A stretch of DNA of 11,688 nucleotides from a virus (Duplodnaviria > Heunggongvirae > Uroviricota > Caudoviricetes), in IMG/VR virus record IMGVR_UViG_2571042053_000015, one strand, 5' to 3'. The stretch's first letter is position 1. Every line of letters begins with the position of its first letter. Positions 1 to 11,688 of this stretch are shown here, one piece after another. A program made the position numbers and the translations under genes. Below the pieces are notes generated by a model. That model ran no database searches and was not told the origin of the DNA. It saw only the letters and a program-made list of their open reading frames with translations.

Positions 1-1260
1 ATGGCAAAGCTGACAGATATCCAAATCAAGTCATGGATTAAGGCAGGAGAGCGCTTCGAGGGGCGCTCTGACGGCAACGGGCTATACCTTCGCTATCGAG
101 CGGGGGATAAAGTGCCTGTATGGCGTTTTCGATATCAGTTCGCTGGGAAATCACGGGTAATGCTTATTGGATCTTATAGCGAAATATCCCTTTCCAAAGC
201 ACGGGAAATAGCCAAGGAATTATCCGCACGTGTAGCCCTAGGCTTCGATGTCGCCGGGGAAAAGAAAGCGCGAAAAGCGGCTGCTATAGAAAAGATGGAG
301 CGGGAGAAAAACGCGCTTCGCGTGTCAGAGCTAGCAACCGAGTATTTCGAACGGCAGATTTTGGGACGCTGGAAACATCCCGATCTTCTGCGCCGGAGAA
401 TCGATAAGGATATCAACCCACATATTGGCAACATGAAGATAGAGGACGTAAAACCCCGTCATATTGATGCGATGCTACAGAGCGTTGTTGATCGTGGCGC
501 TCCAACCGTAGCTAATGACGTTCTGCGCTGGACTAAACGCATATTCGATTATGCTATCAAGCGTCATGCACTGGAATTAAACCCAGCTGGAGCATTTGAT
601 CTGTCAGACGCTGGCGGGCAGGAAAGTAGCCGTATGCGCTGGCTGACCCGTGAAGAACTTATACGTTTTTTCCAAGCTATGCGCACTGCAAAAGGATTCA
701 GCCGCGAGAACGAGCTGACCATGAAGCTAATCCTCTGCCTGTGTTGTCGCAAAATGGAGCTGTGCGGTGCTCAGTGGGATGAATTCGACCTTGATGAAGC
801 AGTGTGGCATCTACCAGCAGAACGCGTTAAAAACGGCGACGCTATTGATATACCACTACCTCCACCTGCGGTTGGTTGGTTGAGAGAGCTTCGCACTATC
901 GCGGGCAGTGGGAGTAAATGGGTTCTCCCCGCGCGGAAGATGCAACACCGCATGATTCCCCACATTCAGGAAAGCACACTCCCCGTGGCGCTGGCAAAAG
1001 TACGCCGCGAAATGCCAGAAGTACCAAACTTCACAATTCACGATTTCAGACGTACCGCCCGCACCCATTTAGCGGCGTTGGGTGTCGATCCCGTAGTCGC
1101 AGAACGTTGCCTGAATCACCGCATTAAAGGCGTTGAGGGTATCTACAACCGCCACCAGTACTTTGAAGAACGACGGGCAGCCCTGGAACTGTGGGCGGGG
1201 CTTCTGGTTTCGCTTGAACGAGGGGAAAACTACAATGTTATTCCTTTATCTAAAATATAA
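1..1260 (+). CDS. int: Phage integrase, tyrosine recombinase, P4 / IntA-like
   Basis: Complete 419-aa ORF (ATG at 1, TAA at 1258-1260). N-terminal arm-binding-like region (GNGLYLRYRAGDKVPVWRFRYQFAGKSRVMLIGSY). C-terminal catalytic signatures of tyrosine recombinases (HDFRRTARTHL H-x-x-R box; GIYNRHQY nucleophile Tyr region). Family assignment is by recall of motifs, not database search. Confidence 0.9.
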   Translation: MAKLTDIQIKSWIKAGERFEGRSDGNGLYLRYRAGDKVPVWRFRYQFAGKSRVMLIGSYSEISLSKAREIAKELSARVALGFDVAGEKKARKAAAIEKMEREKNALRVSELATEYFERQILGRWKHPDLLRRRIDKDINPHIGNMKIEDVKPRHIDAMLQSVVDRGAPTVANDVLRWTKRIFDYAIKRHALELNPAGAFDLSDAGGQESSRMRWLTREELIRFFQAMRTAKGFSRENELTMKLILCLCCRKMELCGAQWDEFDLDEAVWHLPAERVKNGDAIDIPLPPPAVGWLRELRTIAGSGSKWVLPARKMQHRMIPHIQESTLPVALAKVRREMPEVPNFTIHDFRRTARTHLAALGVDPVVAERCLNHRIKGVEGIYNRHQYFEERRAALELWAGLLVSLERGENYNVIPLSKI

Positions 1261-1275
1261 AAGTTTTGTTTGAAG

Positions 1276-1379
1276 GTATTCACCCTATTCACCTTTTTAA
1301 TTAACTTCATGATTTTAAATAATAAAAAAGGGTGAATACTTACAGTAAAACTAATCACCTTAGTATTCACCTGTTCACC
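1276..1379. repeat. Cluster of about six (T)ATTCACC motifs in direct and inverted orientation in the AT-rich spacer after int
   Basis: GGTATTCACCC at 1276-1286, TATTCACC at 1286-1293, inverted GGGTGAATACT at 1330-1340, AATCACC at 1354-1360, AGTATTCACC at 1362-1371, TGTTCACC at 1373-1379. Looks like iterated protein-binding sites; function unknown. Confidence 0.5.
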
Positions 1380-1452
1380 TTCTAAAGCTGCTGTGGCTGC
1401 TCCCCTTGCCCGAAAACACGCCAGCCACCAGCGTTAAAAAATACAAAAATCA

Positions 1453-1476
1453 TCATCGTCCAGATCTGGACGATGA
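1453..1476. repeat. Perfect 24-bp palindrome TCATCGTCCAGATCTGGACGATGA
   Basis: Verified base by base: 12-bp arms, centred on AGATCT, no spacer. Lies in a noncoding stretch between int and the first cargo operon; candidate operator or cruciform. Confidence 0.6.
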
Positions 1477-1573
1477 CGCCAGCACTCACTCTACAAAACA
1501 ACCTAACTTATTGATTTCAAAAGTAGAGAAAATCTGCTTTATGCCACTAGCTCGCACCCGTCCCCAAAAAGAA

Positions 1574-1603
1574 AAAGCCCGCGCTGGAGACGCACGGGCT
1601 TTT
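1574..1603 (+). terminator. Candidate rho-independent terminator-like hairpin flanked by an A-run and a T-run (potentially bidirectional)
   Basis: AAAAAGCCCG-CGCTGGAGACGCA-CGGGCTTTT: GC-rich stem AGCCCG/CGGGCT with a 13-nt loop, followed by TTTT. Sits about 320 bp after the int stop codon. Confidence 0.4.
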
Positions 1604-1679
1604 GGGTACCGATAACCATGTTTGGAATCAACTCATTGAGTTCGGACCTCAATTTGCATGTTATCACAAGAAAAACACA

Positions 1680-1707
1680 TTGCAATAATTGCAACAACGA
1701 ATATTAT
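1680..1707 (+). promoter_or_regulatory. Candidate sigma70 promoter for the 1761-3341 operon, with a palindromic TTGCAA-TAA-TTGCAA element over the -35
   Basis: -35 TTGCAA (1680-1685), 16-bp spacer, -10 TATTAT (1702-1707); duplicated self-complementary TTGCAA hexamers at 1680-1694. The first ATG is at 1761 with a GAGG Shine-Dalgarno at 1750-1753. Confidence 0.3.
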
Positions 1708-1760
1708 CATTGCGTATTATGAAACATAAATATCCGATAGAACATACTGAGGTCTGACCG

Positions 1761-2312
1761 ATGAAAGATATTACAAACATCGCAGTGACTGGCGAAGATG
1801 GCGTGGTGACGTATGCCGACGGCAGTAAAGAGGAGTTCCAGTGCAGCGGAACCGTTGCGACCATCATTGCAAGTCTTGCAACGACACTCGAGAAAGAACG
1901 CAAAATGCGCATCGCCACCGGCGACCGCCTGCGCCGCATGTACACCCGCGACAGTGATATGATTTCCCGCGGTTTGAATGGCACGTCTGCTACTTCCACG
2001 GCACCGACAGCAATGAATGCTGAGTTCATGCGTCTGGTACGTGCCGTAGCGCCGAAATACGATTCAGCACTGCCCGACGCCGACCCGCGCATCGTTGCGC
2101 TCGATGTGCTGCGCTACGCCCCTGCTGAGGCGTTCAGCGCCGTACACCCTACCCCAATGTCAGAAATCCAGCTGGATCAGGCTATCGATATACTCGAGCA
2201 GGTTGGCGACTACATGAAAGCAAACAATATCGCTCCGAAAATAATTTCTACAGGAGACGCAATCCGCAGCATCAATGCTGACAACGCCACCTTCTGGGGC
2301 AAAAAACACTAA
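1761..2312 (+). CDS. Hypothetical protein (183 aa), first gene of cargo operon 1
   Basis: ORF with a GAGG Shine-Dalgarno 8 nt upstream of the ATG. No motif recognised from sequence. Co-directional and tightly spaced with three downstream genes. Confidence 0.7.
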   Translation: MKDITNIAVTGEDGVVTYADGSKEEFQCSGTVATIIASLATTLEKERKMRIATGDRLRRMYTRDSDMISRGLNGTSATSTAPTAMNAEFMRLVRAVAPKYDSALPDADPRIVALDVLRYAPAEAFSAVHPTPMSEIQLDQAIDILEQVGDYMKANNIAPKIISTGDAIRSINADNATFWGKKH

Positions 2313-2318
2313 AGAGAT

Positions 2319-2513
2319 ATGAGCATGCCTATCTATGACCCGAAATTAGCCGCAGGCAACCCACAGCGCGCCCACCGCCCGATGCTGACCCGTCAGGATC
2401 TTGAAGCGGCAAAGGCACGCAATAACTTCGATCGCCAGAGTCGCAACCTGCAGCAACTCAACGAATCAAATGCACGGTTCTGGAGTGAACAGAATGAGAA
2501 AGCCAAACGTTAA
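2319..2513 (+). CDS. Small hypothetical protein (64 aa)
   Basis: ATG at 2319, 7 nt after the upstream stop, preceded by AAAGAG. Hydrophilic, Q/R/N-rich. Overlaps the next ORF by 20 nt in a different frame. No recognisable domain. Confidence 0.45.
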   Translation: MSMPIYDPKLAAGNPQRAHRPMLTRQDLEAAKARNNFDRQSRNLQQLNESNARFWSEQNEKAKR

Positions 2514-2670
2514 GCCGGTCCTGCTGTCCGCCGAGCAGATGCAGGCCATACGCAACATTCAGGAACGTGAACGCCAGCGCTCCAATCTCGGCGTCGCTCC
2601 CACCGTTCACCAGATTGCCCGCGGCCTCATGGCTAAGGCTCTGGCCTCACTGGCAAGCGAGGGCGTGTAA
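2494..2670 (+). CDS. Small hypothetical protein (58 aa), internal start of the 2401-2670 ORF
   Basis: ATG at 2494 preceded by GGAG (2482-2485) at 8-nt spacing. Its TAA stop (2668-2670) overlaps the ATG of the next gene (TAATG), indicating translational coupling. The longer 2401 start lacks a Shine-Dalgarno. Confidence 0.5.
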   Translation: MRKPNVKPVLLSAEQMQAIRNIQERERQRSNLGVAPTVHQIARGLMAKALASLASEGV

Positions 2671-3341
2671 TGGGCGCCATTCACCAGATATATGAGCAGG
2701 AAATGTTCTATAACTGGATAGGCGATGGTAAACGATGTGTAGCATTCCACGAAGCGGGCCATGCAGTAGCCGCATGGCTTATTCGCTTAGATATGCAGGT
2801 TATCGCCATTATGGATGAATCCGGCTACGTTGCTGGCGAACATGTACATGAAGCCCAGTGTTTGGGCGTTGTTAAACACGGCATAATCCACAACCACGAT
2901 CTCAGGCGTTTGCGGGAGAGTAAATCTGGTGTAGTTGGGCACGATGGCAAAGTTATCCCTTTCATACGCTACTACGCGGAAGGTATAAAACGCGATGCAA
3001 CAAAGGCCGCTTTTGTAGCCCTCGCTGGACCAGTAAGCGAAGCCCTTTACGAAAATAACGAAATTTTCAATAAAAAGTATTCACTCCCTCACCGCTATGA
3101 CATGGCTAACGTAAATGACATGCTCGATTTAATATGTGCCACGGATAAGCAAATTAACAGGAAGTTAATGCTTTCTAAACTTGTTGAAAAGACCAAATTC
3201 CTCATGACTCAATACTGGCCGGAAGTAGGAAAAATAGCGCATTTGCTTGAGCGGGATAACATTGTTAATGGGCGCGATGTTAGCTCGCTAATCGGCCTCA
3301 ACGTCATTGACCGGGCAACGCCATTTTTGCTGGCGGAATAA
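2670..3341 (+). CDS. Stand-alone zinc-metallopeptidase-domain protein, FtsH-like (peptidase M41-type HEAGH motif)
   Basis: 223-aa ORF. Residues 24-36 VAFHEAGHAVAAW carry an HExxH zinc-binding motif in the FtsH-like context (FtsH has AYHEAGHAI). No AAA+ ATPase or transmembrane region precedes it. Start codon overlaps the upstream stop. Confidence 0.75.
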   Translation: MGAIHQIYEQEMFYNWIGDGKRCVAFHEAGHAVAAWLIRLDMQVIAIMDESGYVAGEHVHEAQCLGVVKHGIIHNHDLRRLRESKSGVVGHDGKVIPFIRYYAEGIKRDATKAAFVALAGPVSEALYENNEIFNKKYSLPHRYDMANVNDMLDLICATDKQINRKLMLSKLVEKTKFLMTQYWPEVGKIAHLLERDNIVNGRDVSSLIGLNVIDRATPFLLAE

Positions 3342-3417
3342 CCCCTGCCCGAGCTCATTCGACGATTTATTCCTCGGCGGGTAAGCTATACCGGTCTACC
3401 TAACTGCGAGCACAAGG

Positions 3418-4476
3418 ATGATGAATAATTTAATCAATCGCATTGCTTTAACCTTTCTAGCGTTAGTACTCACAGGCTGCACTGCGGGGAAAATCGATCC
3501 CGCAAAAGCGTTAACACAAATGCATATCGTCAAAAGTGATGACTATAAGAAGCGCCCCGGCTGGCCTGCGTTGGTTCGTCTGGGTACTGACGATTGTGAG
3601 ACATACAAAAGTGGCGGCGGTAGCCTCTTTAAGTGGGACGGGCTGACGTGCAACGACAAAAGCATTATCCTGGCGGTTAATAGCAAACCACAGACCATTC
3701 CAGTGTTCTACGCTGCTTACCATGAATACGGGAGCTATGGGGTCGGGGAACTATCCAATTTTGACAATAGCACCCGAACAGGTGAGGAAGCCTCGAAGAT
3801 TCTGGTTAACCTGACCACAGTATTGAACAATCCGGCAAAAGTTGACGCTATCTATGCTGACTATGAAAAGGATCGTTGGAGCATGGGACTTGGTACAGTC
3901 AACGAAAGCGATTTTAAAAAGAGCCTGGCTACTTTTGCTCAGGAACGGGATAAGCTTGCCTCTGAATACCATAAATTACGTGACGCAAACCAAAAGAGAT
4001 ACCTAGCTGAACGGGACGAACGAATCAAACGTGAGAAAGAAGAGGCCATGGCCTCTGAAAAAACGATTGATCTCGTGTTATGGCAGAATCCAACAGTTGA
4101 GCAACAGATGGTTGTTGACGCTCTGCACACTATTAAATTCACAATAAGAAACGATGGCGTGGCATACGCTAACGGTCGCCGATTTATGTCAATTGCCGGG
4201 ATGGAATATCTCAGGAATAGCCTAGCTCTGAGTATGGAGTCATGTTCAGACGCTGGGGCATATGTTGGTGATACGGCATTAAATCGCGCATGTATTCAGG
4301 GCTTGGCGAGGAACATTGTTGAGTGGGGGAAAACCGCCAACGACCGTTCTATTTCAGACAGAGCATGGAACGCAGCCGCAATGGATGGCAGCATTAACTA
4401 CAACCCAATCAAGTATGAAATCCTGTTTTCACATTGGGCAGGAATGGCCCGTGTCTACTCTGCTCGTAGATATTAA
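3418..4476 (+). CDS. Predicted lipoprotein (352 aa) with a central coiled-coil / charged segment; function unknown
   Basis: N-terminus MMNNLINRIALTFLALVLTGC has a hydrophobic signal peptide and lipobox L-T-G-C (Cys21). Charged, helix-prone segment ERDKLASEYHKLRDANQKRYLAERDERIKREKEEA. Gene is visibly AT-rich compared with int and primase. Followed by a terminator. Confidence 0.75.
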   Translation: MMNNLINRIALTFLALVLTGCTAGKIDPAKALTQMHIVKSDDYKKRPGWPALVRLGTDDCETYKSGGGSLFKWDGLTCNDKSIILAVNSKPQTIPVFYAAYHEYGSYGVGELSNFDNSTRTGEEASKILVNLTTVLNNPAKVDAIYADYEKDRWSMGLGTVNESDFKKSLATFAQERDKLASEYHKLRDANQKRYLAERDERIKREKEEAMASEKTIDLVLWQNPTVEQQMVVDALHTIKFTIRNDGVAYANGRRFMSIAGMEYLRNSLALSMESCSDAGAYVGDTALNRACIQGLARNIVEWGKTANDRSISDRAWNAAAMDGSINYNPIKYEILFSHWAGMARVYSARRY

Positions 4477-4526
4477 ACACTGCGCTTCGAACTGATAAAT
4501 TTAAGCTTAATCAGTACATTACTGTT

Positions 4527-4552
4527 AGCCCGCATTTTAGCGGGCTTTCTTT
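4527..4552 (+). terminator. Rho-independent terminator after the lipoprotein gene
   Basis: AGCCCGC-ATTTTA-GCGGGCT stem-loop (7-bp GC-rich stem, 6-nt loop) followed by TTCTTT, 50 nt after the stop at 4476. Confidence 0.6.
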
Positions 4553-4569
4553 AGTTGAGCTTTGTACAA

Positions 4570-4585
4570 GATGTAAATTTACATC
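4570..4585. repeat. Perfect 16-bp AT-rich palindrome GATGTAAATTTACATC between convergent operons
   Basis: Verified self-complementary. Located between the + strand terminator and the stop (4619) of the - strand operon. Confidence 0.5.
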
Positions 4586-4618
4586 CTGATTATCCAGTGC
4601 GCCGTAAAAGCTGGCAAT

Positions 4619-5731
4619 CTATTTAACTAAACGTAAATGTGACGGGCGTATCCCCGATTCCTGGGTACTCGATTTTCCACCATTGATAGCTTCCATAAAG
4701 AAGCTGTTACTGAAAGTAAGTGCACTCGCTTCGTCCGCTGGTAACCTCAACTGCTCGAGAATATCTCCCCTTTTAACGCCTTTGCTGCGTAGGGCTGAAA
4801 ACACTTTATCCAGCACTAATGACTTTTCACGTTCAGCAATCCCTTGAGGCTCACTCGTACGATATCCACGGCGAGCAAGTTCTATCGATAGCTGTCGATA
4901 ATGCCATTCGGTAGATAAACCGACATCAAACGTACGGCGCACCAAAGCCGCCAATGATACCCGCCAGTTCTTTTTTAACGAGATGAGTAGATCAAGCGAT
5001 GGCATTCTTGGCACTAAAGCTAAAATACTACGCTCAGGCATCAAAAAGGCCGATGCGAATCGATCTGCATCCTGCTCAGCTTGGCGGCCGTTGTTAGTTG
5101 AATGTTTATGGAGAACCAAGTGCCCCAGTTCATGAGCTGCATCGAATCGACTACGCTCCGGCGTTTTCATTGTATTCAAAAGCACAAAAGGTTTTTCATC
5201 CATCCAGAACGAAAAGGCGTCTACTTCAATACAATTTTCCGCGAGAGAGAACACACGGACCCCATTAGCTTCAAGAAGATGGACCATGTTAGAGATGGAT
5301 AATTCACCTATCCCCCAACTTTCTCTAACCACGCGAGCAGCTCGCTCAGGCTCAGAATAACCATCGAAACTACAATCAGGTACATTAGGTTTAGGAAGCT
5401 TAAACTGCCCGTCAATCCAAGCTGATAGCTCTTGCGCGAGCTTTCCGGCTCCGAGTGCTGAGTCCCTTTTCTGTGCCGTCAACTTTGTCATTGCACGGAA
5501 ACTAACGGCTTCTGGCGACAGAGTAGGTACATCCCTGTCGAGGAAGAACTCAATCGGATAGCCCAGAACAGCAGAAATCCGTTCCATGGTATCGCTGGCT
5601 ATGGCATCAAAAATCCCTGCTTTCTCGTAATTCGAAATCGTCTTACTAGTCAATTCTGTAGCTTCAGCTAAAGCTCTTTGTGTCAGGCCTCTCCGTTCTC
5701 TGGCTATACGTAAACGCTCTGAATTAAACAT
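4619..5731 (-). CDS. Fused XRE-family HTH / ImmA-IrrE (M78-like) zinc-metallopeptidase protein
   Basis: 370-aa ORF. N-terminal HTH (RLRIARERRGLTQRALAEATELTSKTISNYEKA, typical XRE / Cro-C1 helix-turn-helix). Central HExxH in the ImmA/IrrE context (RFDAAHELGHLVLHKH). Second gene of a two-gene - strand operon, 9 nt after the upstream stop. Confidence 0.85.
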   Translation of the reverse strand: MFNSERLRIARERRGLTQRALAEATELTSKTISNYEKAGIFDAIASDTMERISAVLGYPIEFFLDRDVPTLSPEAVSFRAMTKLTAQKRDSALGAGKLAQELSAWIDGQFKLPKPNVPDCSFDGYSEPERAARVVRESWGIGELSISNMVHLLEANGVRVFSLAENCIEVDAFSFWMDEKPFVLLNTMKTPERSRFDAAHELGHLVLHKHSTNNGRQAEQDADRFASAFLMPERSILALVPRMPSLDLLISLKKNWRVSLAALVRRTFDVGLSTEWHYRQLSIELARRGYRTSEPQGIAEREKSLVLDKVFSALRSKGVKRGDILEQLRLPADEASALTFSNSFFMEAINGGKSSTQESGIRPSHLRLVK

Positions 5732-5740
5732 GGTGCATAT

Positions 5741-6460
5741 TTAGCCTGTTTTTAAAATGTCGAGATCGATATCCGGTGTAAACTGCGGTACATCACCGTT
5801 CTGAACAATAGGGTCAGGTTGATGAGGAGCAATAATTAAACGTGTGGAGAAGGCATTAACTACATTCTTGTTATTGTATGAAATCGGGCGTGAAAGCTCA
5901 GCTCGGATCCCCACGCGCTCATCCCCGTCAATTTCATAAAAATCGTAAAGTAAAAACCATAAGTCCAGTCCGATTTTATTCGGTAGCAGTGGTATAACAT
6001 CACCTTCCGGCATGTCTAAATCCAGCTTAAGCTGGCTATCATCCAGGATAAGCTCACCCTGACCCGGGGTGTTATTATGGATTAACCCCATCAGCTCACA
6101 AGTAAAATCACCTTTCTTCATGCGAGACTCAGGAAATCCATGAACCAAACCTGTCTGATCACACCCCCGGCAGAGGTAAAGGGCAACTTTATCACTTACA
6201 GTCAGTTCAACATTTCGCAGGGACAGACGTTTGTAGCCTTTCGGAGCCAGAATGTCGCGGGCTGCACTCACCCCCTCACCATAGAAATATTGCCCACGTG
6301 AGGTCTTGGGGTGATTCTGAGTCGTCGAATAACGACCAGACAAGCCACGCTCAAGAATACGCCTGAGATCACTTTGGCTCAGATTCAGGGACTGCAGGTA
6401 GGATTCAACATCGTCAGGATCTGCCAAAACAATGGTTTTTGCGAGATTATGAGAGTACAT
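5741..6460 (-). CDS. Hypothetical protein (239 aa), first gene of the - strand two-gene operon; candidate effector / toxin partner
   Basis: ORF with a good Shine-Dalgarno (AAGAGG about 9 nt upstream of the ATG on the - strand). No motif recognised by eye. Immediately upstream of the HTH-peptidase gene. Confidence 0.7.
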   Translation of the reverse strand: MYSHNLAKTIVLADPDDVESYLQSLNLSQSDLRRILERGLSGRYSTTQNHPKTSRGQYFYGEGVSAARDILAPKGYKRLSLRNVELTVSDKVALYLCRGCDQTGLVHGFPESRMKKGDFTCELMGLIHNNTPGQGELILDDSQLKLDLDMPEGDVIPLLPNKIGLDLWFLLYDFYEIDGDERVGIRAELSRPISYNNKNVVNAFSTRLIIAPHQPDPIVQNGDVPQFTPDIDLDILKTG

Positions 6461-6489
6461 CGGAAAAGCCTCTTATATATTTTCTATTT

Positions 6490-6518
6490 TTTATACCTCA
6501 TTTGAGGTTTAAAAACAA
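6490..6518 (-). promoter_or_regulatory. Candidate promoter of the - strand operon with a palindromic operator (ACCTCA-TT-TGAGGT, 6495-6508) in the spacer
   Basis: Read on the - strand: -35 TTGTTT (+ strand 6513-6518), 17-bp spacer containing the 14-bp inverted repeat, -10 TATAAA (+ strand 6490-6495), about 29 nt before the ATG at 6460. Confidence 0.35.
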
Positions 6519-6666
6519 GAAAATCACTGTATAAAATCTCAGAGATAATCGACAGATTAGAGAGTATTATCCATATTGAGGCTATCCCGACGGGGAGAAA
6601 AGCGGCTACGCCTTGCCGCCTGCCTCCCCCATTATCTCAAGGCGGTGACGTGTAAGGCGAACGTGC

Positions 6667-7494
6667 ATGAGTGGTTTTGTTTTTCCTTTCGAGTTTCAAC
6701 CAGTGCCAGAGGCATTGGCAATCCTGAACGACATGGATATTGCTCCCTTTGAAATAACCGAAAAACACCTAGAAAGCTGGTGGGCGGAGGGGAAAATTCA
6801 ACTGTGCTTTAACTGGGGTAGATTCTGGAAAGCTGGCTTAGCCGACGAACTGGCAAAAACAGAAGGCTACGCAGAATTAGGGGCGAAAGAAAAGATCACT
6901 GCGCTCAATGCTGTATCCGCTTCCCCCGAGGCTAACATCAGTCTTGTCGTGCCATCTTACAGCGATTTAAGTTTTATCTGGCGCGGGCATAGCGACGATC
7001 CACTCCCCTGTATCGAGGCCAAACCCTACGGGCTTGATCAACCTTTTGTTATCAAACGCGTTCCTCACACCTGCGAGGACTATTGCGATTACGGTACGCA
7101 GCATTGGGAAAAACTTTACCATTCGCTGCACATTTCGAGTATGGTGCTGCCGCGTGCTGAAGCTGAAAAAATTTATTATCTCTGCAACCCTACAGCTATT
7201 CCAGGCATGGACGAAAAGACGGCATCTGCAGTATCTGCAGTATCTGCGAAAACGGTTAACTATCTGGCCACTGCTTTAAAAGCTTTTATTCACATCCATT
7301 ACGGGGCTGATGTGGCGGACAACCTGCGCAAACATCTTGAGGATCCCACCAGTGATATACGGAAAGACTTTGCGAATAAAGGGATCAAAGCGCCAGGTGG
7401 AAAAGCGCTGGCCAGCCATCTGAAAAATATTCTGATTGAAGTTTTACCCGCGCTCGACAACGTCGATGTGGAGAGTGACGCTGGTAATACATAA
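6667..7494 (+). CDS. Hypothetical protein (275 aa), orphan cargo gene immediately upstream of alpA
   Basis: ORF with AAGG 9 nt upstream of the ATG. No recognisable catalytic motif. Cys/His-rich patch (PHTCEDYCDYGTQHWEKLYHSLH). Contains an in-frame 9-bp tandem repeat. Confidence 0.7.
   Translation: MSGFVFPFEFQPVPEALAILNDMDIAPFEITEKHLESWWAEGKIQLCFNWGRFWKAGLADELAKTEGYAELGAKEKITALNAVSASPEANISLVVPSYSDLSFIWRGHSDDPLPCIEAKPYGLDQPFVIKRVPHTCEDYCDYGTQHWEKLYHSLHISSMVLPRAEAEKIYYLCNPTAIPGMDEKTASAVSAVSAKTVNYLATALKAFIHIHYGADVADNLRKHLEDPTSDIRKDFANKGIKAPGGKALASHLKNILIEVLPALDNVDVESDAGNT
7222..7248 (+). repeat. In-frame 9-bp tandem repeat, three imperfect copies (GCATCTGCA GTATCTGCA GTATCTGCG), encoding ASAVSAVSA
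   Basis: Direct inspection of the sequence inside the 6667-7494 ORF. Confidence 0.7.
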
Positions 7495-7590
7495 CCCCGG
7501 AACATTCCATATATTCCGACGCATTAGAATATTCCAGAGCCCATCACCATAACCTTGCGATTACCTTCTCACTCAATAGCAGGTAATCGC

Positions 7591-7803
7591 ATGAAATCGC
7601 AAACTTTCACCTTTCCCACCAATGGCAACGCACGAGCCAAACAAGTGGCGCACTATCTTGGAGTGCATATCAGCACCGTATGGCGCTATGCAAAACGTCC
7701 TGATTTTCCAAAACCCCACCAGTTAACCGACGGCGTGACCGTCTTTGACGCCGCAGCTATTCGCCAATGGAACAAGCAAAAAACCGGGGGTGAGAATGCT
7801 TAA
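7591..7803 (+). CDS. alpA: AlpA-family (P4 Vis-like) transcriptional regulator / excisionase-like protein
   Basis: 70-aa protein from the internal ATG at 7591 (AGGTAA Shine-Dalgarno just upstream). Sequence QVAHYLGVHISTVWRYAKRPDFPKPHQLTDGVTVFDAAAIRQW matches the AlpA / Vis winged-HTH pattern. Position between int and primase matches P4-like elements. Confidence 0.8.
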   Translation: MKSQTFTFPTNGNARAKQVAHYLGVHISTVWRYAKRPDFPKPHQLTDGVTVFDAAAIRQWNKQKTGGENA

Positions 7804-7857
7804 CGCGACCGTGAGCACACCCTGCACGACAGCCGTTCGATCTCCATTGTTGGCGGG

Positions 7858-8052
7858 TCAGGCTTTCGGCTCAATACCCAGCCGCTGGAGTTCTTTGCGC
7901 CCCAAGGTTTTCATCCAATTAGCTAAACTCATACCTGCATCTCGTGCGGCGGCCTCGAATTGCTCTTTCAATTCTGGGGCGATCCTCACTTGGAAAGCTG
8001 GTGCCTTTCCCCTGCCTTTGGGCTGTTTATCACGCTGTATTACTGTTGACAT
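7858..8052 (-). CDS. Ribbon-helix-helix (Arc / CopG-like) DNA-binding protein, candidate repressor of the replication operon
   Basis: 64-aa product from the internal ATG (MSTVIQRDK...). PAFQVRIAPELKEQFEAAARDAGMSLANWMKTLGRKEL shows the beta-strand / helix / helix pattern of RHH proteins. Divergent from the operon starting at 8187. The longer 8103 start would place the operator-like palindromes inside the coding region. Confidence 0.6.
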   Translation of the reverse strand: MSTVIQRDKQPKGRGKAPAFQVRIAPELKEQFEAAARDAGMSLANWMKTLGRKELQRLGIEPKA

Positions 8053-8108
8053 GTATGTACCTATTAAACTAAGATTCAAATCAATAGGTACGCACCTTAA
8101 CATGTTAA
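8045..8108. promoter_or_regulatory. Divergent control region with operator-like inverted repeats
   Basis: Consensus-like TTGACA at 8045-8050. Perfect 9-bp inverted repeat GTACCTATT (8057-8065) / AATAGGTAC (8083-8091) with a 17-bp spacer. Perfect 12-bp palindrome TTAACATGTTAA (8097-8108). Confidence 0.35.
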
Positions 8109-8122
8109 GGTCAGAAAAGACA

Positions 8123-8156
8123 ACGCCCCGTATGTGTTGCGAGCACTACGGGGCGT
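8123..8156. other. GC-rich hairpin (10-bp perfect stem ACGCCCCGTA / TACGGGGCGT, 14-nt loop) in the leader of the small-gene / primase operon
   Basis: Verified inverted repeat. On the - strand it is followed by TGTCTTTTCTG (terminator-like); on the + strand it sits about 30 nt upstream of the 8187 start. Could be an attenuator, terminator or RNA element. Confidence 0.4.
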
Positions 8157-8186
8157 CTAACCAACAACGTTACGGAGACTAACGCT

Positions 8187-8387
8187 ATGGCTAAGCCGCA
8201 GTGTACCCAAACTCACCCCAAATATCAGTATCGTTTTATGGCGCTCGATCGCGCTGACCGCCAGGCAAAACCCTGCAAAATCATTGTTGAGGCCACCAGC
8301 GAGCACGAAGCGCGTAAAGTGCTGGCTCCTCACTACATCCTGTCACTGTCCGCCGTTTTGCCAGTTCAGGAGGTGAGCCATGTTTAA
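8187..8387 (+). CDS. Small hypothetical protein (66 aa) of the P4-like replication / regulatory module
   Basis: ATG with GGAG 9 nt upstream. First of five tightly coupled small ORFs preceding the primase. Resemblance to small Icd-like / Ash-like proteins of P4-family prophages is only a vague recollection, not verified. Confidence 0.55.
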   Translation: MAKPQCTQTHPKYQYRFMALDRADRQAKPCKIIVEATSEHEARKVLAPHYILSLSAVLPVQEVSHV

Positions 8388-8574
8388 CGTCATTGTCACG
8401 GTCATCTATCACTTTTCGGGAACGATCCGTCGTTTTGCTATTCCGGAACGTTTCAATAATCGTGAGCTCGCAGAGAAAGCAGCGCAGCAGTTAACCCATA
8501 CCAGCTATCTGGATGATGGAGTGAGCAGAATTGTGACCCACGCGGCGGAAGTAGTGGAGGTGCGCCATGTATGA
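8380..8574 (+). CDS. Small hypothetical protein (64 aa)
   Basis: Strong Shine-Dalgarno AGGAGG 6 nt upstream of the ATG. 8-nt overlap with the upstream gene (ATGTTTAA). Confidence 0.55.
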   Translation: MFNVIVTVIYHFSGTIRRFAIPERFNNRELAEKAAQQLTHTSYLDDGVSRIVTHAAEVVEVRHV

Positions 8575-8755
8575 CGCCTACCTGAACCCAAAGGACGCAC
8601 TCCGTCCGATCGCCGTTGCACTCGAGGCTGCGCAGTTTATCGCGCTTGACCCGGAGAATACCGATTTAGCCCATGAGCTGATCGCCTGGGCACTTGAAAC
8701 AGCCGCGCGTGCCTCAGCTGCGCAACGTAACACCCCGGAGGGTAAAAATGCTTAA
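8567..8755 (+). CDS. Small hypothetical protein (62 aa)
   Basis: GGAGG 6 nt upstream of the ATG. 8-nt overlap with the upstream gene (ATGTATGA). Confidence 0.5.
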   Translation: MYDAYLNPKDALRPIAVALEAAQFIALDPENTDLAHELIAWALETAARASAAQRNTPEGKNA

Positions 8756-9056
8756 TCTCAATACATGGAATCTTTTCACGCTGCCGCTGAACGGTGGCGC
8801 AGCTGAGACAGCGCCGGACGATCTGCGTCTGCTGGCCGCTGTGGGGGACGAGGCTCGCAACGACTACCTGCGCGGTGTAAGCGCCATCGGCAATCTGATC
8901 TTCTGGGCATGTGATAACCCCAACTACACCGACCATAAAGCTGACCTGCCAGCGCTGGGCGCATTCCTGAAACATACCGCTGATATGGCGCGCGCTGCCG
9001 AATTCATGGCGGGACATCTGGACTCACTGGCTGACGGCAAAGAGGGAGGCAAATAA
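8748..9056 (+). CDS. Hypothetical protein (102 aa), internal start of the 8694-9056 ORF
   Basis: ATG at 8748 preceded by GGAGGG at about 6-nt spacing; 8-nt overlap with the upstream gene (ATGCTTAA). The 8694 start has no Shine-Dalgarno and lies inside the upstream gene. Confidence 0.55.
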   Translation: MLNLNTWNLFTLPLNGGAAETAPDDLRLLAAVGDEARNDYLRGVSAIGNLIFWACDNPNYTDHKADLPALGAFLKHTADMARAAEFMAGHLDSLADGKEGGK

Positions 9057-9277
9057 TGCCACGCAAACATCGCTCATCAAGCAACCTGATCAAATTAATG
9101 GAACGCCAGAAAGGTATAGGGCGCGACGATATCCAGATCGCAGATAATCGCCCTACATTCATGCCGTACGAGCCGAACGGAACCTACGCCACAAACCGCC
9201 ATACCCGCCGTATGCTACGCAAGCTCCACGGCATCCAGGCAAAAAGAATGTGTGATCTGAAAGGAGGTCAGAAATGA
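9056..9277 (+). CDS. Small basic hypothetical protein (73 aa)
   Basis: GAGGGAGG Shine-Dalgarno upstream. Start overlaps the upstream stop (TAATG) and its stop overlaps the primase start (ATGA). Arg/Lys-rich. Confidence 0.55.
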   Translation: MPRKHRSSSNLIKLMERQKGIGRDDIQIADNRPTFMPYEPNGTYATNRHTRRMLRKLHGIQAKRMCDLKGGQK

Positions 9278-11688
9278 TTGGATTCGATCACCTGATGGAG
9301 CAGGGGCAGAAACGCACCCCTGCTCGTTTTACTGCAAATAGCTTTTCTGACCTGTGCAACGCTATTCTATCGCATCGTGTGCAAATTTCCATCACCCCAG
9401 AAATGACAGATGAAGAGCGACGTAAGGAAAAGCAGAAACTGTACTGGTTCTCGGCAACTACCCAGCAGGACGGGCAGCGACGTAAACCCGAAAACATGGC
9501 ACCGTGTGCTTTCGGTATGCTGGACATTGACGGCAGCACTCCCGGTGCAATCACAGCACTTGTACAGGTGTTCCGGCGATACTCAATGCTGGTGTACCAG
9601 ACGGCCAGCTATACGGCGGATGAACCTCGTCTGCGTATTGTGTGCGAGCTTTCCCGAGCGGTTGAATCTGACTACCGCCGAGCGACAGGCGAATCCATAG
9701 AAACTTTGTTGATGCAGGAGGCTGGATTCTCATTCGCCAGCCTGGCGGATAAGAAAGCACGCTGGGAGAACGGCAGCGATTATGTTGTCTTTGACCGCAA
9801 TGTATACGGCGCTCAAAGCTATTGCTACTGTCCACACTCTGGAGCGAAAGCCCAGAATTACGCGGGCGCGGTAATCGACGTAGGGGCGTTACCGGAACCC
9901 GCCCAGCTACCAGCGAAGGCGGCCAAAAGCAAGGCAAAGAAACAGCGCCAGCGTGACGCCGCGGCGGTAATAGATGCTGATTTTGACGATCTGAGCGCCG
10001 GACCGGATAACTTCCTTATCGCCGACCTGCGCAGCGCACTCTGGTTTCCCTCCATGCTGCAAAAGGCATGGGACAATGGGGCGTGGATTGAGCAGGGCTA
10101 CCGCCTTGCATCTCTCAAAGGCACCGATTTTGAGGACGACGCGCGGCAGCTGTGGGTCGAGTGGTCATTGACCGCGGCGGATGGCTGGCCTGATGAAGAA
10201 CTTGATGAAGTCGCAGCACAACGCTGGGATGGTCTCGCCCCTGACAAAACCAGCTATAAAGCTATTTTTACTGATGCTCAGGCGCAGGGGTGGAATAATC
10301 CGAGCACATGGCGAGCAAAGGCCGCGTACATTGAGAAAATGGCCCCCAGCACACGCGGTGAACTGCTAGCGCAATATTACGGCAACGTATGCCTGAAAGC
10401 TGATGGTAACATGGTTTATCACTATACCGGGCAGGGGTGGGAGCACATCGCCGATGCCGAGTTGCGCCGCCAGCTTTCGCATATTTTCAAAGATAACGGG
10501 GTCCCCTTTACACCGTACGAGGTTAAAAGCGCGATTGAGGCTATGGGAATGCTTCTGCCTTTAATGGGAGAAACTCCTCGTAACCTGATTGGCTTTGCCA
10601 ACGGCGTTTATGATCTCGAGGCGCAGCGATTCCGCCCCCACTGCCCAGACGATTGGCTGACCAGCCATAACGGCGTTGAATACACGCAACCGGTTAAAGG
10701 CGAAACCCTGAAAAACAATGCCCCAAACTTCTGGCGCTGGCTGCATCATTCCGCAGGGGGCGACTTCGACAAAATGGAGAGAATCAAAGCCGCTCTGTAT
10801 ATGGTGCTGGCAAACCGCTACGACTGGCAACTGTTCATCGAGGTTACCGGTGCTGGTGGCAGTGGTAAAAGCGTGTTCACGGGTATTGCACGTATGCTGA
10901 CGGGCGAACTACACGCCACCAGCGGCACAATGGAGGACATGGACACCGCGCGCGAACGCGCATCTTTTGTCGGCAAAAGCCTGATCACCCTACCCGACCA
11001 AGCAACATATACGGGTTCCGGGCCGGGTATCAAGGCTATAACGGGCGGCGACGTGGTAAGGATCGACCCAAAGCACGAAAAGCCATTCCATACGGTTATT
11101 CGCGCCGTTGTCATCGCAACAAACAACGAACCTATGCGTTTCACCGAACGACAAGGCGGGATATCGCGGCGCCGGGTTATTTTCCCGTTTAACCATGAAG
11201 TGCCGGAGGCGGAACGTGATCCCCATCTGCTCGATAAAATTAAAGCCGAACTGCCGGTAATCGTCCGTGGTCTGCTGATTGACTTCGAACAGCCAGGCAA
11301 AGCCAAATCGCTACTTATCGCGCAGCGTGATTCAGCGGAAGCGCTGCAGGTGAAGAACGATAACGACCCGATGTATGGCTTTTGCTCTTACCTGCTAGGT
11401 TTGCCGAATCCCGAGGGCATGTACATGGGCGATGGGCGCATGGCGCGAGAGCCACGCATCTACCTCTATCATGCTTATCTGGCCTATCTGGAAGCCTACG
11501 GTTATCAGAGAACCCCCACCCTGCCAAAGTTCAGCGGAGATTTACGGGACACGCTCAAAGCCTTTGGTATTACTCTGGACAGTAAAAAGAGTAAAAAGGG
11601 CAAAAGATATAACGTCAATTTGTCTGACAGGGCACAAGAATGGCTGGGAGAAGACGAACTCTCAGCTGTGCCCGACACATTGCAGTAA
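9274..11688 (+). CDS. P4-alpha-like DNA primase / helicase (phage-plasmid primase, P4 family, P-loop NTPase C-terminal region)
   Basis: 804-aa ORF with a strong Shine-Dalgarno (AGGAGG) and TAA at 11686-11688. Walker A P-loop VTGAGGSGKSVF (about nt 10846-10880). Size and position after alpA and the small genes fit the primase-helicase of P4-like satellites / PICIs. Recalled from family knowledge, not searched. Confidence 0.85.
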   Translation: MIGFDHLMEQGQKRTPARFTANSFSDLCNAILSHRVQISITPEMTDEERRKEKQKLYWFSATTQQDGQRRKPENMAPCAFGMLDIDGSTPGAITALVQVFRRYSMLVYQTASYTADEPRLRIVCELSRAVESDYRRATGESIETLLMQEAGFSFASLADKKARWENGSDYVVFDRNVYGAQSYCYCPHSGAKAQNYAGAVIDVGALPEPAQLPAKAAKSKAKKQRQRDAAAVIDADFDDLSAGPDNFLIADLRSALWFPSMLQKAWDNGAWIEQGYRLASLKGTDFEDDARQLWVEWSLTAADGWPDEELDEVAAQRWDGLAPDKTSYKAIFTDAQAQGWNNPSTWRAKAAYIEKMAPSTRGELLAQYYGNVCLKADGNMVYHYTGQGWEHIADAELRRQLSHIFKDNGVPFTPYEVKSAIEAMGMLLPLMGETPRNLIGFANGVYDLEAQRFRPHCPDDWLTSHNGVEYTQPVKGETLKNNAPNFWRWLHHSAGGDFDKMERIKAALYMVLANRYDWQLFIEVTGAGGSGKSVFTGIARMLTGELHATSGTMEDMDTARERASFVGKSLITLPDQATYTGSGPGIKAITGGDVVRIDPKHEKPFHTVIRAVVIATNNEPMRFTERQGGISRRRVIFPFNHEVPEAERDPHLLDKIKAELPVIVRGLLIDFEQPGKAKSLLIAQRDSAEALQVKNDNDPMYGFCSYLLGLPNPEGMYMGDGRMAREPRIYLYHAYLAYLEAYGYQRTPTLPKFSGDLRDTLKAFGITLDSKKSKKGKRYNVNLSDRAQEWLGEDELSAVPDTLQ

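Follow-up and report, generated by a model that had tools for sequence, protein, structure and literature searches.

What occupies the 6.3 kb that separate an integrase gene from an alpA regulator gene in a small E. coli element, and how did this DNA come to be there? The initial annotation proposed that the int-alpA interval is a hotspot for variable cargo and that it holds three independent accessory modules. The stretch of DNA analysed here, referred to as the window, is 11 688 nucleotides long and comprises nearly all of a 12.1-kb integrative E. coli island.

Layout of the island and of its int-alpA interval

A 19-nt direct repeat, the att core, bounds the 12.08-kb island, which is located between yicC and dinD in E. 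coli. The attL copy of the core lies 61-79 nt upstream of int and the attR copy about 315 bp past the stop codon of the primase, giving a gene order of attL, int, the interval, alpA, an icd-like gene, a P4-type primase and attR. Domains identified in an orthologue of the primase are D5_N, DUF5906 and Pox_D5. The island has the hallmarks by which Gram-negative PICI are recognized: co-oriented int, AlpA-type regulator and primase-replicase, a length of ∼10-15 kb, and an att site of its own. The complete set of genes in the 12.1-kb island includes no phage structural or lysis genes, and no capsid morphogenesis, terS or rpp module lies between the primase and attR. It is a minimal PICI-like satellite without packaging genes and, lacking a packaging module, would rank only as a ‘Type C’ PICI by the rules of SatelliteFinder. 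The features of the window are as follows.

1..1260, + strand: tyrosine integrase of the P4/CP4-57 type (Pfam Arm-DNA-bind_3, Phage_int_M, Phage_integrase), left border of the cargo slot
1276..1380, no strand: (G/C)TATTCACC repeats in both direct and inverted orientation, clustered about an AT-rich spacer
1573..1603, both strands: hairpin with A-run and T-run flanks, marking the left edge of module A, the portable module
1761..2312, + strand: p183, first gene of module A (ORF, annotation)
2325..2513, + strand: p62, small gene of module A (annotation)
2494..2670, + strand: p58, small gene with its stop overlapping the protease start (annotation)
2670..3341, + strand: probable FtsH-like (M41) zinc metalloprotease of 223 aa, a protease domain standing alone
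3418..4476, + strand: lipoprotein, 352 aa, lipobox LTGC
4527..4546, + strand: intrinsic terminator ending module A
4619..5731, − strand: RmrA antitoxin, N-terminal XRE HTH plus M78 (ImmA/IrrE) zinc peptidase
5741..6460, − strand: RmrT toxin, 239 aa, first gene of the − operon
6575..6642, + strand: int-alpA RNA motif (Rfam RF02996), right border of the cargo slot and leader of gene X
6667..7494, + strand: gene X, 275 aa, the ‘orphan’ gene of the initial annotation, resident of the int-alpA gap with shuffled N- and C-terminal domains
7591..7803, + strand: alpA regulator (Pfam Phage_AlpA, annotation), opening the backbone
7591..11688, + strand: rightward backbone of alpA, icd-like gene, small ORFs (8187-9277) and primase (9274-11688)

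The ORF listing is concordant with the way RefSeq annotates an E. coli record of 100% identity, and the two bear out the initial description of the gap between the end of int (1260) and the start of alpA (7591): a plus-strand operon that includes the lipoprotein gene (1761-4476), a convergent minus-strand pair (4619-6460) and a single plus-strand gene (6667-7494). All ORFs of the interval are intact and are 99.2-100% identical over nine E. coli genomes, which include O45:H2 and O55:H7 strains and come from human, cattle and genet sources.

As had been noticed at the outset, the lipoprotein gene is AT-richer than the backbone (46.6% against 53.1% GC). The interval as a whole has 47.2% GC, a modest but measurable difference from the backbone, and a compositional match, which would have spoken against the proposal, is not seen in codon usage either. 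GC3 is 0.43 in the minus-strand pair and 0.48 in the M41 and lipoprotein genes, compared with 0.56 in the backbone (95% CI 0.53-0.58); the p183-p62-p58 genes are GC-richer, with a GC3 of 0.62. Each module had also been credited with its own promoter or terminator, and terminators are indeed present. The hairpin at 1573-1603 is terminator-like on both strands because it is flanked by an A-run and a T-run, and the terminator at 4527-4546 (−16.1 kcal/mol, z = −3.9) has a T-run on the plus strand only. The promoter part of the claim fared less well, with nine promoter-like matches found and 8.9 expected from shuffles. The (G/C)TATTCACC repeats could be iteron-like or operator-like. The cluster is kept in relative L002 and partly kept in L086 and L090, in which the integrase is unrelated at the DNA level and homology to the window starts at 1276.

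The int-alpA RNA motif and gene X

The RNA motif scores 46.5 bits with the RF02996 covariance model, compared with a gathering score of 35.8. In 14 instances of the Rfam-type structure, 77% of cells are paired, as against 39-56% with slid partners, and the covariation score is 0.315 compared with a maximum of 0.193 in the slid-partner controls, both counted on a MAFFT alignment that was not fitted to the structure. The motif is 75-94% conserved where its flanks are unrelated. Rfam classes it as an sRNA, and our search for literature on its function found no paper. The same model also has matches in head operons of phages, where they precede genes for HNH endonucleases.

Members of the gene X family are always preceded by the motif, at a distance from the start of X of about 7-13 nt in expanded loci, 7-19 nt in all those measured, and 24 nt in the window. 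In the window it is 5.3 kb away from int, yet it adjoins the start of X, and it is therefore tied to X-alpA and not to int. X belongs to a mosaic family, has a weakly AlpA/MerR-like N-terminus, and is normally the sole gene between int and alpA. It is a resident with shuffled domains, not inserted cargo, and the count of three accessory modules is accordingly reduced to two cargo units.

Comparison with relatives agrees with the initial view that little or one gene is the norm between int and alpA, since the gap measures 0.8-1.6 kb in 22 of 25 int-alpA-primase loci of other species and 0.8-1.2 kb in the majority of relatives. In ∼40 compact relatives the RNA motif follows the int stop codon by 7-55 nt; in one sample of compact loci it lies 7-22 nt past the stop, further loci have it immediately behind int, and in a second sample it lies 7-55 nt past int in 31 of 34 loci. 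These compact relatives have the same int family, RNA and X, and are without the genes of module A and RosmerTA. Expanded loci (the window, L002-4, L009, L014, L063, L086-91, L093-96, L099-101 and L214) have 2.5-8.0 kb of differing DNA between int and the motif. The RNA stays by X and the differing DNA lies on its int side, which defines a single insertion point, occupied in the window by two cargo modules.

Two cargo units and their probable exchange between islands

The int-alpA stretch is a genuine cargo slot, and its contents are a protease-lipoprotein module that is portable and a toxin-antitoxin pair of a known anti-phage family. By profile, the minus-strand pair belongs to RosmerTA, published as an anti-phage family in which diverse toxins are combined with an ImmA-type protease antitoxin (10.1101/2022.05.11.491447; PMC10440598). 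RmrA matches PADLOC PDLC03949 over its full length (residues 1-370, E 1.3e-149), has Pfam HTH_3 and Peptidase_M78 domains, and carries a HELGH motif in its translation. RmrT, whose gene precedes rmrA by 9 nt in the same orientation, matches PDLC03935 (residues 9-237, E 1.1e-52) and has no match in Pfam or the PDB. The expectation of a defence hotspot is therefore supported for this pair; the other interval genes of unassigned role have no match to PADLOC defence models.

In module A, p183 has no match in Pfam, NCBIfam, PHROG or PADLOC. The M41-like protein aligns with the entire protease domain of AFG3L2 (6nyy, residues 299-479, E 0.0017); in the alignment, HEAGH is retained and an Asp is aligned with the conserved Asp-Asp pair of AFG3L2. 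Its Pfam M41 match is weak (21 bits, under the 29.9 cut-off), and homologues are named ‘peptidase M41 family protein’ in RefSeq. Cys21 of the lipoprotein is invariant among 31 homologues, and the lipoprotein gene is present in some near-identical islands and absent from others.

Module A is portable, as several occurrences elsewhere show, and its place in other islands is the second accessory region, which follows the primase. At 93% identity, window positions 1572-4486 are found again downstream of primase and PerC genes in an island at tRNA-Gly whose integrase is 31% identical, and in L005 homology to the post-primase copy begins at window position 1572. Homologues of p58 adjoin an M41-like gene past the primase in L007 and L011, a p58 homologue is also found past the primase in L015 and L016, and Dickeya has an M41-lipoprotein pair there. 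Within the sublineage of the window, p183-p62-p58 look like fixed backbone. They are found in every member (E. coli, Salmonella-type contigs and Citrobacter) and accompany the alpA-primase backbone even where int has been swapped; only M41, the lipoprotein gene, the toxin-antitoxin pair and X vary. The objection raised in advance, that related elements might carry the same genes as conserved backbone, thus applies to these three genes and not to the rest.

As anticipated, content between int and alpA is variable, with about ten expanded configurations among near-identical and more distant relatives. The window has RosmerTA type 1. Type 2, without the lipoprotein gene, is found in E2348/69-type islands, where the backbone is 99% identical to that of the window and RmrT is replaced by an unrelated RmrT. 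Other relatives have extra xis-like and DUF4224 genes; 357-aa and 115-aa genes replacing M41 and the lipoprotein; a split HTH plus M78 pair; IS110 and DUF3289; TumE-like, HVO_A0114 and Q-like genes; or tail- or baseplate-like genes. In most relatives the slot is empty, and the term ‘hotspot’ fits a minority lineage of roughly 10-25% of sampled loci; just two configurations occur among 17 complete E. coli genomes carrying this int.

These observations are best accounted for, with a probability of roughly 70%, by a single insertion point between int stop and RNA, two cargo units, and turnover by recombination between related islands. The gap normally contains the RNA motif, a few bases past the int stop codon, and X alone, and all extra DNA enters between that stop codon and the RNA. 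One unit is a 2.9-kb module of terminator, promoter region, p183, p62, p58, M41-like protease and lipoprotein genes; the other is the oppositely oriented RosmerTA pair. Its homology indicates that RosmerTA may provide abortive-infection-type defence, in which RmrA, through its DNA-binding domain and zinc peptidase, would restrain RmrT until a phage cue frees the toxin. Cargo would be exchanged as related islands recombine at conserved flanks, with the 3′ end of int or p183-p58 on the left and the RNA motif or alpA on the right, and similar recombination could exchange X domain by domain.

Alternative histories and comparison with known systems

Module A might have come to lie next to int by relocation or replacement of an att-int cassette and not by insertion, a history that we consider possible, if somewhat doubtful. 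The ancestral circle would then have read primase, module A, attP-int, RNA-X-alpA; a new attP-int would have landed between primase and module A, with loss of its predecessor, whose former place RosmerTA now fills. The usual position of module A, or of its p58-M41 core, past the primase fits this order, as does the short space left after the primase in the window. Salmonella-type contigs share module A, RosmerTA and primase (87-92% identity) at a different chromosomal site and with an unrelated int, the homology junction falling at window position 1276, 16 nt past the int stop. In relatives, module A and RosmerTA are separated by minus-strand xis-like (AlpA-family) and DUF4224 genes, which also resemble remnants of an integration module. 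However, neither a third att core nor a piece of one was found inside the island, and the later allelic swaps of RosmerTA, lipoprotein and X would be left unexplained. Being compatible with a slot that later acts as a cargo site, relocation complements insertion and recombination at that site.

It is unlikely that the interval genes are the conserved backbone of a distinct lineage, fixed once in an ancestor and serving the island life cycle through regulation or helper manipulation. Synteny of p183-p62-p58, and usually M41, at 85-99% nucleotide identity across the sublineage would agree with this, and most expanded relatives have a peptidase-HTH unit next to the RNA, in the form of RmrA of type 1 or type 2 or of a split HTH and M78 pair, the exceptions being L014, L063 and L093-96. 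Such a position means that the unit could have an island-regulatory role and not be free cargo, and the classic element regulators of the ImmR/ImmA kind are likewise pairs of HTH and M78 (PMC10440598). Yet the ∼40 compact relatives do without all these genes, an unrelated RmrT has been swapped in between 99%-identical backbones, M41 and lipoprotein are replaced or absent in relatives, module A is located elsewhere in other islands, and GC3 is unlike that of the backbone. We give still less weight to a decaying island whose interval is a junkyard of fragments without current function. The lack of packaging or capsid-redirection genes, the IS elements and truncated RmrA in the slots of Erwinia relatives, and a dinD pseudogene next to attR in one strain all lean that way, but they are set against the intact, nearly invariant ORFs of the window and the intact catalytic motifs of RmrA and the M41-like protease. 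Furthermore, mobilization by a helper phage has been shown for the comparable minimal int-alpA-primase island EcCIMP1, which also has antirepressor, PerC and other genes (PMC11773190).

Beyond the cargo slot itself, two linked readings may be entertained jointly, although we think them rather improbable in combination: that the RNA is a portable leader or insulator at a safe entry point, and that module A is an undescribed anti-phage or helper-manipulating system. The RNA would then keep read-through from int or cargo away from the X-alpA induction switch; in phages, the motif separates head genes from HNH endonuclease genes that have been inserted. It would fall to X, whose domains are shuffled and sensor-like, to set which helper phage induces the island, and the p183-p62-p58-M41-lipoprotein system would shuttle between two cargo slots of these islands.

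Integrase-adjacent cargo has already been described for PICI and P4-like satellites; the entry point between int stop and RNA, and the resident X, found no mention in the papers that we read. The window RNA shares with RF02996 its three-helix architecture, a score above gathering and a location between int and alpA, and differs in lying far from int and near X; matches to the model extend to phage head operons. The minus-strand pair resembles RosmerTA in its toxin-first two-gene operon, its antitoxin of HTH and ImmA/IrrE M78 peptidase, the full-length profile matches of both genes, and the use of different RmrT toxins with related RmrA, as in the window and E2348/69. No domain or transmembrane segment is recognisable in its RmrT, which need not depolarise membranes as the phage Kita toxin does (PMC10440598).

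The P4 defence hotspot is located between psu and int (10.1101/2021.01.21.427644), and Zn-peptidase TA configurations are credited by Millman et al. to the work on that hotspot. Both systems are satellites of ∼12 kb that encode a P4-alpha-type primase and have a variable locus next to int, with cassettes in either orientation and short defence systems as content. The island differs in that psu, delta and sid are not among its ORFs, nor among Pfam matches in a scan that covered the interval ORFs and alpA, and DNA similarity to P4 is confined to a short stretch of the primase gene. The island plus flanks has no match within three mismatches to GGCGAGGCGGGGAAAGCAC, the P2/P4 cos sequence. The right border is formed by the RNA motif and gene X in the window, and by cos and psu in P4.

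Compared with PICI, the island differs in having no capsid-morphogenesis, terS or rpp module. It shares with them a rightward-transcribed core of int, alpA and primase within 12 kb, an att site of its own and the absence of structural and lysis genes, and its accessory genes sit at the published PICI cargo position, between int and the regulatory module (PMC6092414; PMC10085698).

Limits and composition of the island

E. coli 2011C-4251 and several further strains carry the window in their chromosomes at 100% identity; in 2011C-4251 its place is between yicC and dinD. A perfect 19-nt direct repeat, TTGTACCCAAGACTGTACC, is found on both sides of the island, one copy 61-79 nt before int (left) and the other 316 nt beyond the primase stop (right). 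The copies are 12,082 bp apart, and the window is therefore an almost complete integrative island of 12.1 kb. It begins with int, followed by the 6.3-kb interval, alpA and a small gene on the − strand; an icd-like gene, four small ORFs and, as the last gene, a P4-family primase complete the order. Structural, lysis, psu/delta/sid and terminase genes were absent from the ORFs, Pfam matches and annotation of the island, no P2/P4 cos site was found in it, and the phage collection showed DNA similarity only in a short part of the P4 alpha gene. Just beyond attR, dinD (L001:24318-25142) is a pseudogene with an internal stop in 2011C-4251, but E2348/69 has an intact gene; in L007 this chromosomal site is occupied by another island, with a dinD copy at either end.

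The coordinates and gene groups in the initial annotation are correct according to the ORF listing and annotation. The features discussed here are:

up to 1260: int
1276-1380: short repeats just past int
1573-1603: hairpin terminator
1761-4476, + strand: module A (genes for p183, p62, p58, an M41-like protease and a lipoprotein)
4527-4546: hairpin terminator
4619-6460, − strand: gene pair
6575-6642: RNA motif RF02996
6667-7494, + strand: gene X, the ‘orphan’
from 7591: alpA
7804-8122: small variable slot directly after alpA
8123-8156: palindromic hairpin

The interval differs in composition from the backbone, as had been anticipated (47.2% versus 53.1% GC). Third-position GC (GC3) is 0.43 in the − pair, 0.47 in X, and 0.48 in the M41-like and lipoprotein genes, compared with 0.56 (95% CI 0.53-0.58) in the backbone. 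The first three genes of the + operon (p183, p62, p58) have a value of 0.62, above that of the backbone, so the operon is itself compositionally composite. Each module had also been credited with its own promoter or terminator. The two hairpins listed are convincing terminators; promoter-like sites in the window are no commoner than in shuffled sequence, so separate promoters are not claimed.

In the region just past int, (G/C)TATTCACC occurs five or six times, in direct and inverted orientation, around an AT-rich spacer. These repeats are kept in E2348/69 and partly kept in contigs with an unrelated integrase, and could be iterons or operators. Relatives also conserve the palindromic hairpin of 34 nt (−26 kcal/mol, z = −4.8) that separates the icd-like gene from the small − strand gene. 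The icd-like gene of compact relatives (those with no extra DNA between int and alpA) contains or adjoins isrK and C4 antisense RNAs, neither of which is present in the window. The small slot after alpA holds a 64-aa HicB/RHH-like gene on the − strand in the window, a DUF3950 (YlcI/YnfO) gene in close relatives, and a BrnT/BrnA toxin-antitoxin pair in Salmonella islands.

A single slot between int and RF02996

Relatives were compared by four routes: E. coli complete genomes, integrase homologues, contigs with homologues of X or the protease, and viral and metagenome collections scanned with a pattern for the RNA motif. The integrase-homologue sample comprised 77 loci from other species, 25 of them with int, alpA and primase; the int-alpA gap was 0.2-1.6 kb in 22 of these 25, usually ∼1 kb with one + strand gene. 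Among 5,426 E. coli complete genomes, this int and backbone occur in 17, nine with the arrangement of the window and eight with a second arrangement (E2348/69 and others). The latter islands are 99% identical to the window from 1 to ∼3329-3356 and from 7547 onward, and differ between these points: they have no lipoprotein gene and a different X.

Within the variable region, ∼6576-6680 is the sole stretch common to the window and all expanded relatives, those with kilobases of extra DNA between int and the RNA. It contains RF02996, the Rfam int-alpA RNA, which scores 46.5 bits and so exceeds its gathering score of 35.8. RNAalifold predicted a partly different fold for the RNA instances, and the Rfam architecture was therefore tested explicitly. 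Across 14 instances, 77% of cells were paired, versus 39-56% when partners were slid, and the covariation score was 0.315 versus at most 0.193. The RNA starts 7-55 nt past the int stop codon in compact relatives. In all expanded relatives it is directly upstream of X (7-13 nt from the end of the extended motif to the start of X; 7-19 nt across all loci measured), with 2.5-8.0 kb between int and the RNA. All of the extra DNA therefore lies in one slot, from the int stop codon to RF02996. This slot is empty in most relatives.

True phage contigs (IMG/VR L107, L114, L131, L168, L169, L177, L190) contain the motif as well, with scores of 53-65 bits. These copies lie ∼10 nt past a head gene (minor capsid protein 2, Mu F-like protein or HK97-type capsid) and directly precede small inserted ORFs, two families of which are NUMOD4/HNH_3 or HNH/EndoVII endonucleases. 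Because of this placement, and because the RNA stays with X-alpA when parted from int, we suggest that RF02996 serves inserted or regulatory genes as a leader or insulator and is not an sRNA linked to int.

The protein encoded by X clusters (BLASTP single linkage) with that of the lone gene filling the int-alpA gap of compact relatives, in a family of initially 12 and later 30 members. X is a resident gene and not cargo. Its N- and C-terminal parts are shuffled, with at least three N-types combined with three C-types among the homologues (P0001-P0032). For example, X of the window has an N-part like that of a Citrobacter island (39%) and a C-part like that of an Erwinia island (56%), and X of E2348/69 joins an Erwinia-type N-part to an Aeromonas-type C-part. 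One N-type, that of the window included, has a ∼40-aa insertion. The gene is rare (32 clusters among 5.8 billion) and has no Pfam domain. Only weak MerR/AlpA/Xis-like structural matches were obtained for the N-terminus, and a sequence search of solved structures returned two matches, both non-significant (E about 0.85).

Occupants of the slot

Anchoring relatives on int and alpA supports the variable cargo site that had been proposed.

Contents of the slot in the window and relatives
Window: module A, RosmerTA type 1
E2348/69 type (L002-4): module A without lipoprotein, RosmerTA type 2
Salmonella-type contigs, yicC site (L099-101): module A without lipoprotein, 102-aa gene, − strand AlpA-like gene, 164-aa gene, RosmerTA type 2
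L086-89 (unrelated int, other site): module A, xis-like and DUF4224 genes, RosmerTA type 1
L090: p183-p62-p55, 357-aa baseplate-hub-like gene, 115-aa gene, RosmerTA type 1
Citrobacter L009: p183-p58, truncated M41-like gene, other genes, split HTH plus M78 pair
L214: p183-p58, tape-measure-like, hub-like and spike genes, split HTH plus M78 pair
Erwinia L063: RmrA fragment, IS110, DUF3289
Erwinia L014: IS fragments only
Salmonella L093-96: TumE-like, HVO_A0114, HTH and Q-like genes

The initial annotation counted three independent modules, a division that does not hold: X is resident, and p183-p62-p58 are constant throughout the sublineage, accompanying the alpA-primase backbone even where int has been exchanged. 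In L214 (oriented 2623-7671) and L090:5165-6585, these genes are followed by tail-like genes (tape-measure-like, baseplate hub gp41-like, a spike with a GpV apex motif and a 115-aa signal-peptide protein) in place of the M41-like and lipoprotein genes of the window.

By profile matches, the − pair is RosmerTA, a published family of anti-phage toxin-antitoxins in which an ImmA-type protease antitoxin is partnered by unrelated toxins. The 370-aa protein matches the PADLOC RmrA profile over its full length (E 1.3e-149); its domains are HTH_3 and Peptidase_M78, and its HELGH motif is intact. The 239-aa protein encoded upstream matches an RmrT profile (E 1.1e-52). No solved structure matched RmrT by sequence, nor did tblastn find a match to it among 50,697 phage records. 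The E2348/69 type has an RmrA that is 27% identical to that of the window and hits other RmrA profiles (E 3.5e-125), together with an unrelated RmrT. RosmerTA type 1 is present in 10 of the complete E. coli genomes. Its sole other E. coli copy (L006:8826-10682, 77% nucleotide identity) is in a different island beside ffs and adjoins an IS26/ISCR2 resistance region with floR and qnrS2. Judging from family membership, the toxin would presumably be released on infection, protecting the host and hence the island.

Module A as a whole is portable. A tRNA-Gly island, with an integrase just 31% identical to that of the window, has positions 1572-4486 at 93% identity downstream of primase and PerC, and the homology has its left edge at the 1573-1603 hairpin. 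Other E. coli islands, and Dickeya, have the p58-M41 core or the M41-lipoprotein pair behind primase. The M41-like protein is a predicted 223-aa stand-alone FtsH-like metalloprotease domain that aligns across the whole AFG3L2 protease domain and retains HEAGH and one aligned Asp. The 352-aa lipoprotein has an invariant lipobox cysteine and a confident structure model resembling no solved fold. No PADLOC model matched any of the five module A proteins; p183, p62, p58, the lipoprotein and X have no family in PADLOC, Pfam, NCBIfam or PHROGs, lenient thresholds included, and p183 and the lipoprotein matched no solved structure by sequence. The idea that p58-M41 is very widespread in E. coli was rejected, as its DNA is in only 52 of the 5,426 complete genomes. 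The window matched 949 records; among the matches listed, most appear due to other parts.

Probable exchange between islands and relation to known satellites

Against the E2348/69 type, the 99% identity of the window ends abruptly at ∼3330, with none beyond until 7547 apart from the RNA motif, a short patch of homology. These sharp breaks fit a model in which cassettes would be exchanged by homologous recombination between related islands with common flanks. The integrase itself has been swapped. In Salmonella-type contigs L086-L091, module A, RosmerTA and primase are 87-92% identical to the window, the integrase gene is unrelated to window 1-1276 and the chromosomal site is different. The junction, 16 nt past the int stop codon (window 1276), indicates integrase-cassette exchange, and thus the 3′ boundary of int is a general module boundary. 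A movement of the att-int cassette relative to module A is a less probable history, whether alternative or additional: it would fit the usual place of module A behind primase, the window having no post-primase accessory region and the xis-like remnants between module A and RosmerTA in relatives, but a search for a third att core copy, as a test of fusion origin, found none in the island.

For minimal int-alpA-primase islands, which are common in Enterobacterales, these comparisons give a cargo rule: all DNA from the int stop codon to RF02996. The rule offers a cheap harvest of candidate defence and competition genes, strikes X from the list as a false candidate, and brings to notice a compact, unstudied protease-lipoprotein module. 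The comparisons also link RF02996, an orphan Rfam motif, with the X-alpA end of the gap and not with int, which makes its function testable. In the literature searched, in which ‘int-alpA’ appeared merely as a listed motif, we found no description of the exact entry point at the int stop-RF02996 junction, of the resident mosaic gene X, or of a protease-lipoprotein module shuttling between two accessory regions. Accessory genes between int and the regulator have already been stated for PICIs, and a defence hotspot beside int is established for P4-like satellites. In the SatelliteFinder-type vocabulary of de Sousa et al., the island would be a ‘Type C’ PICI (PMC10085698); the comparable EcCIMP1, also a minimal int-alpA-primase island, functions as a helper-dependent satellite (PMC11773190).
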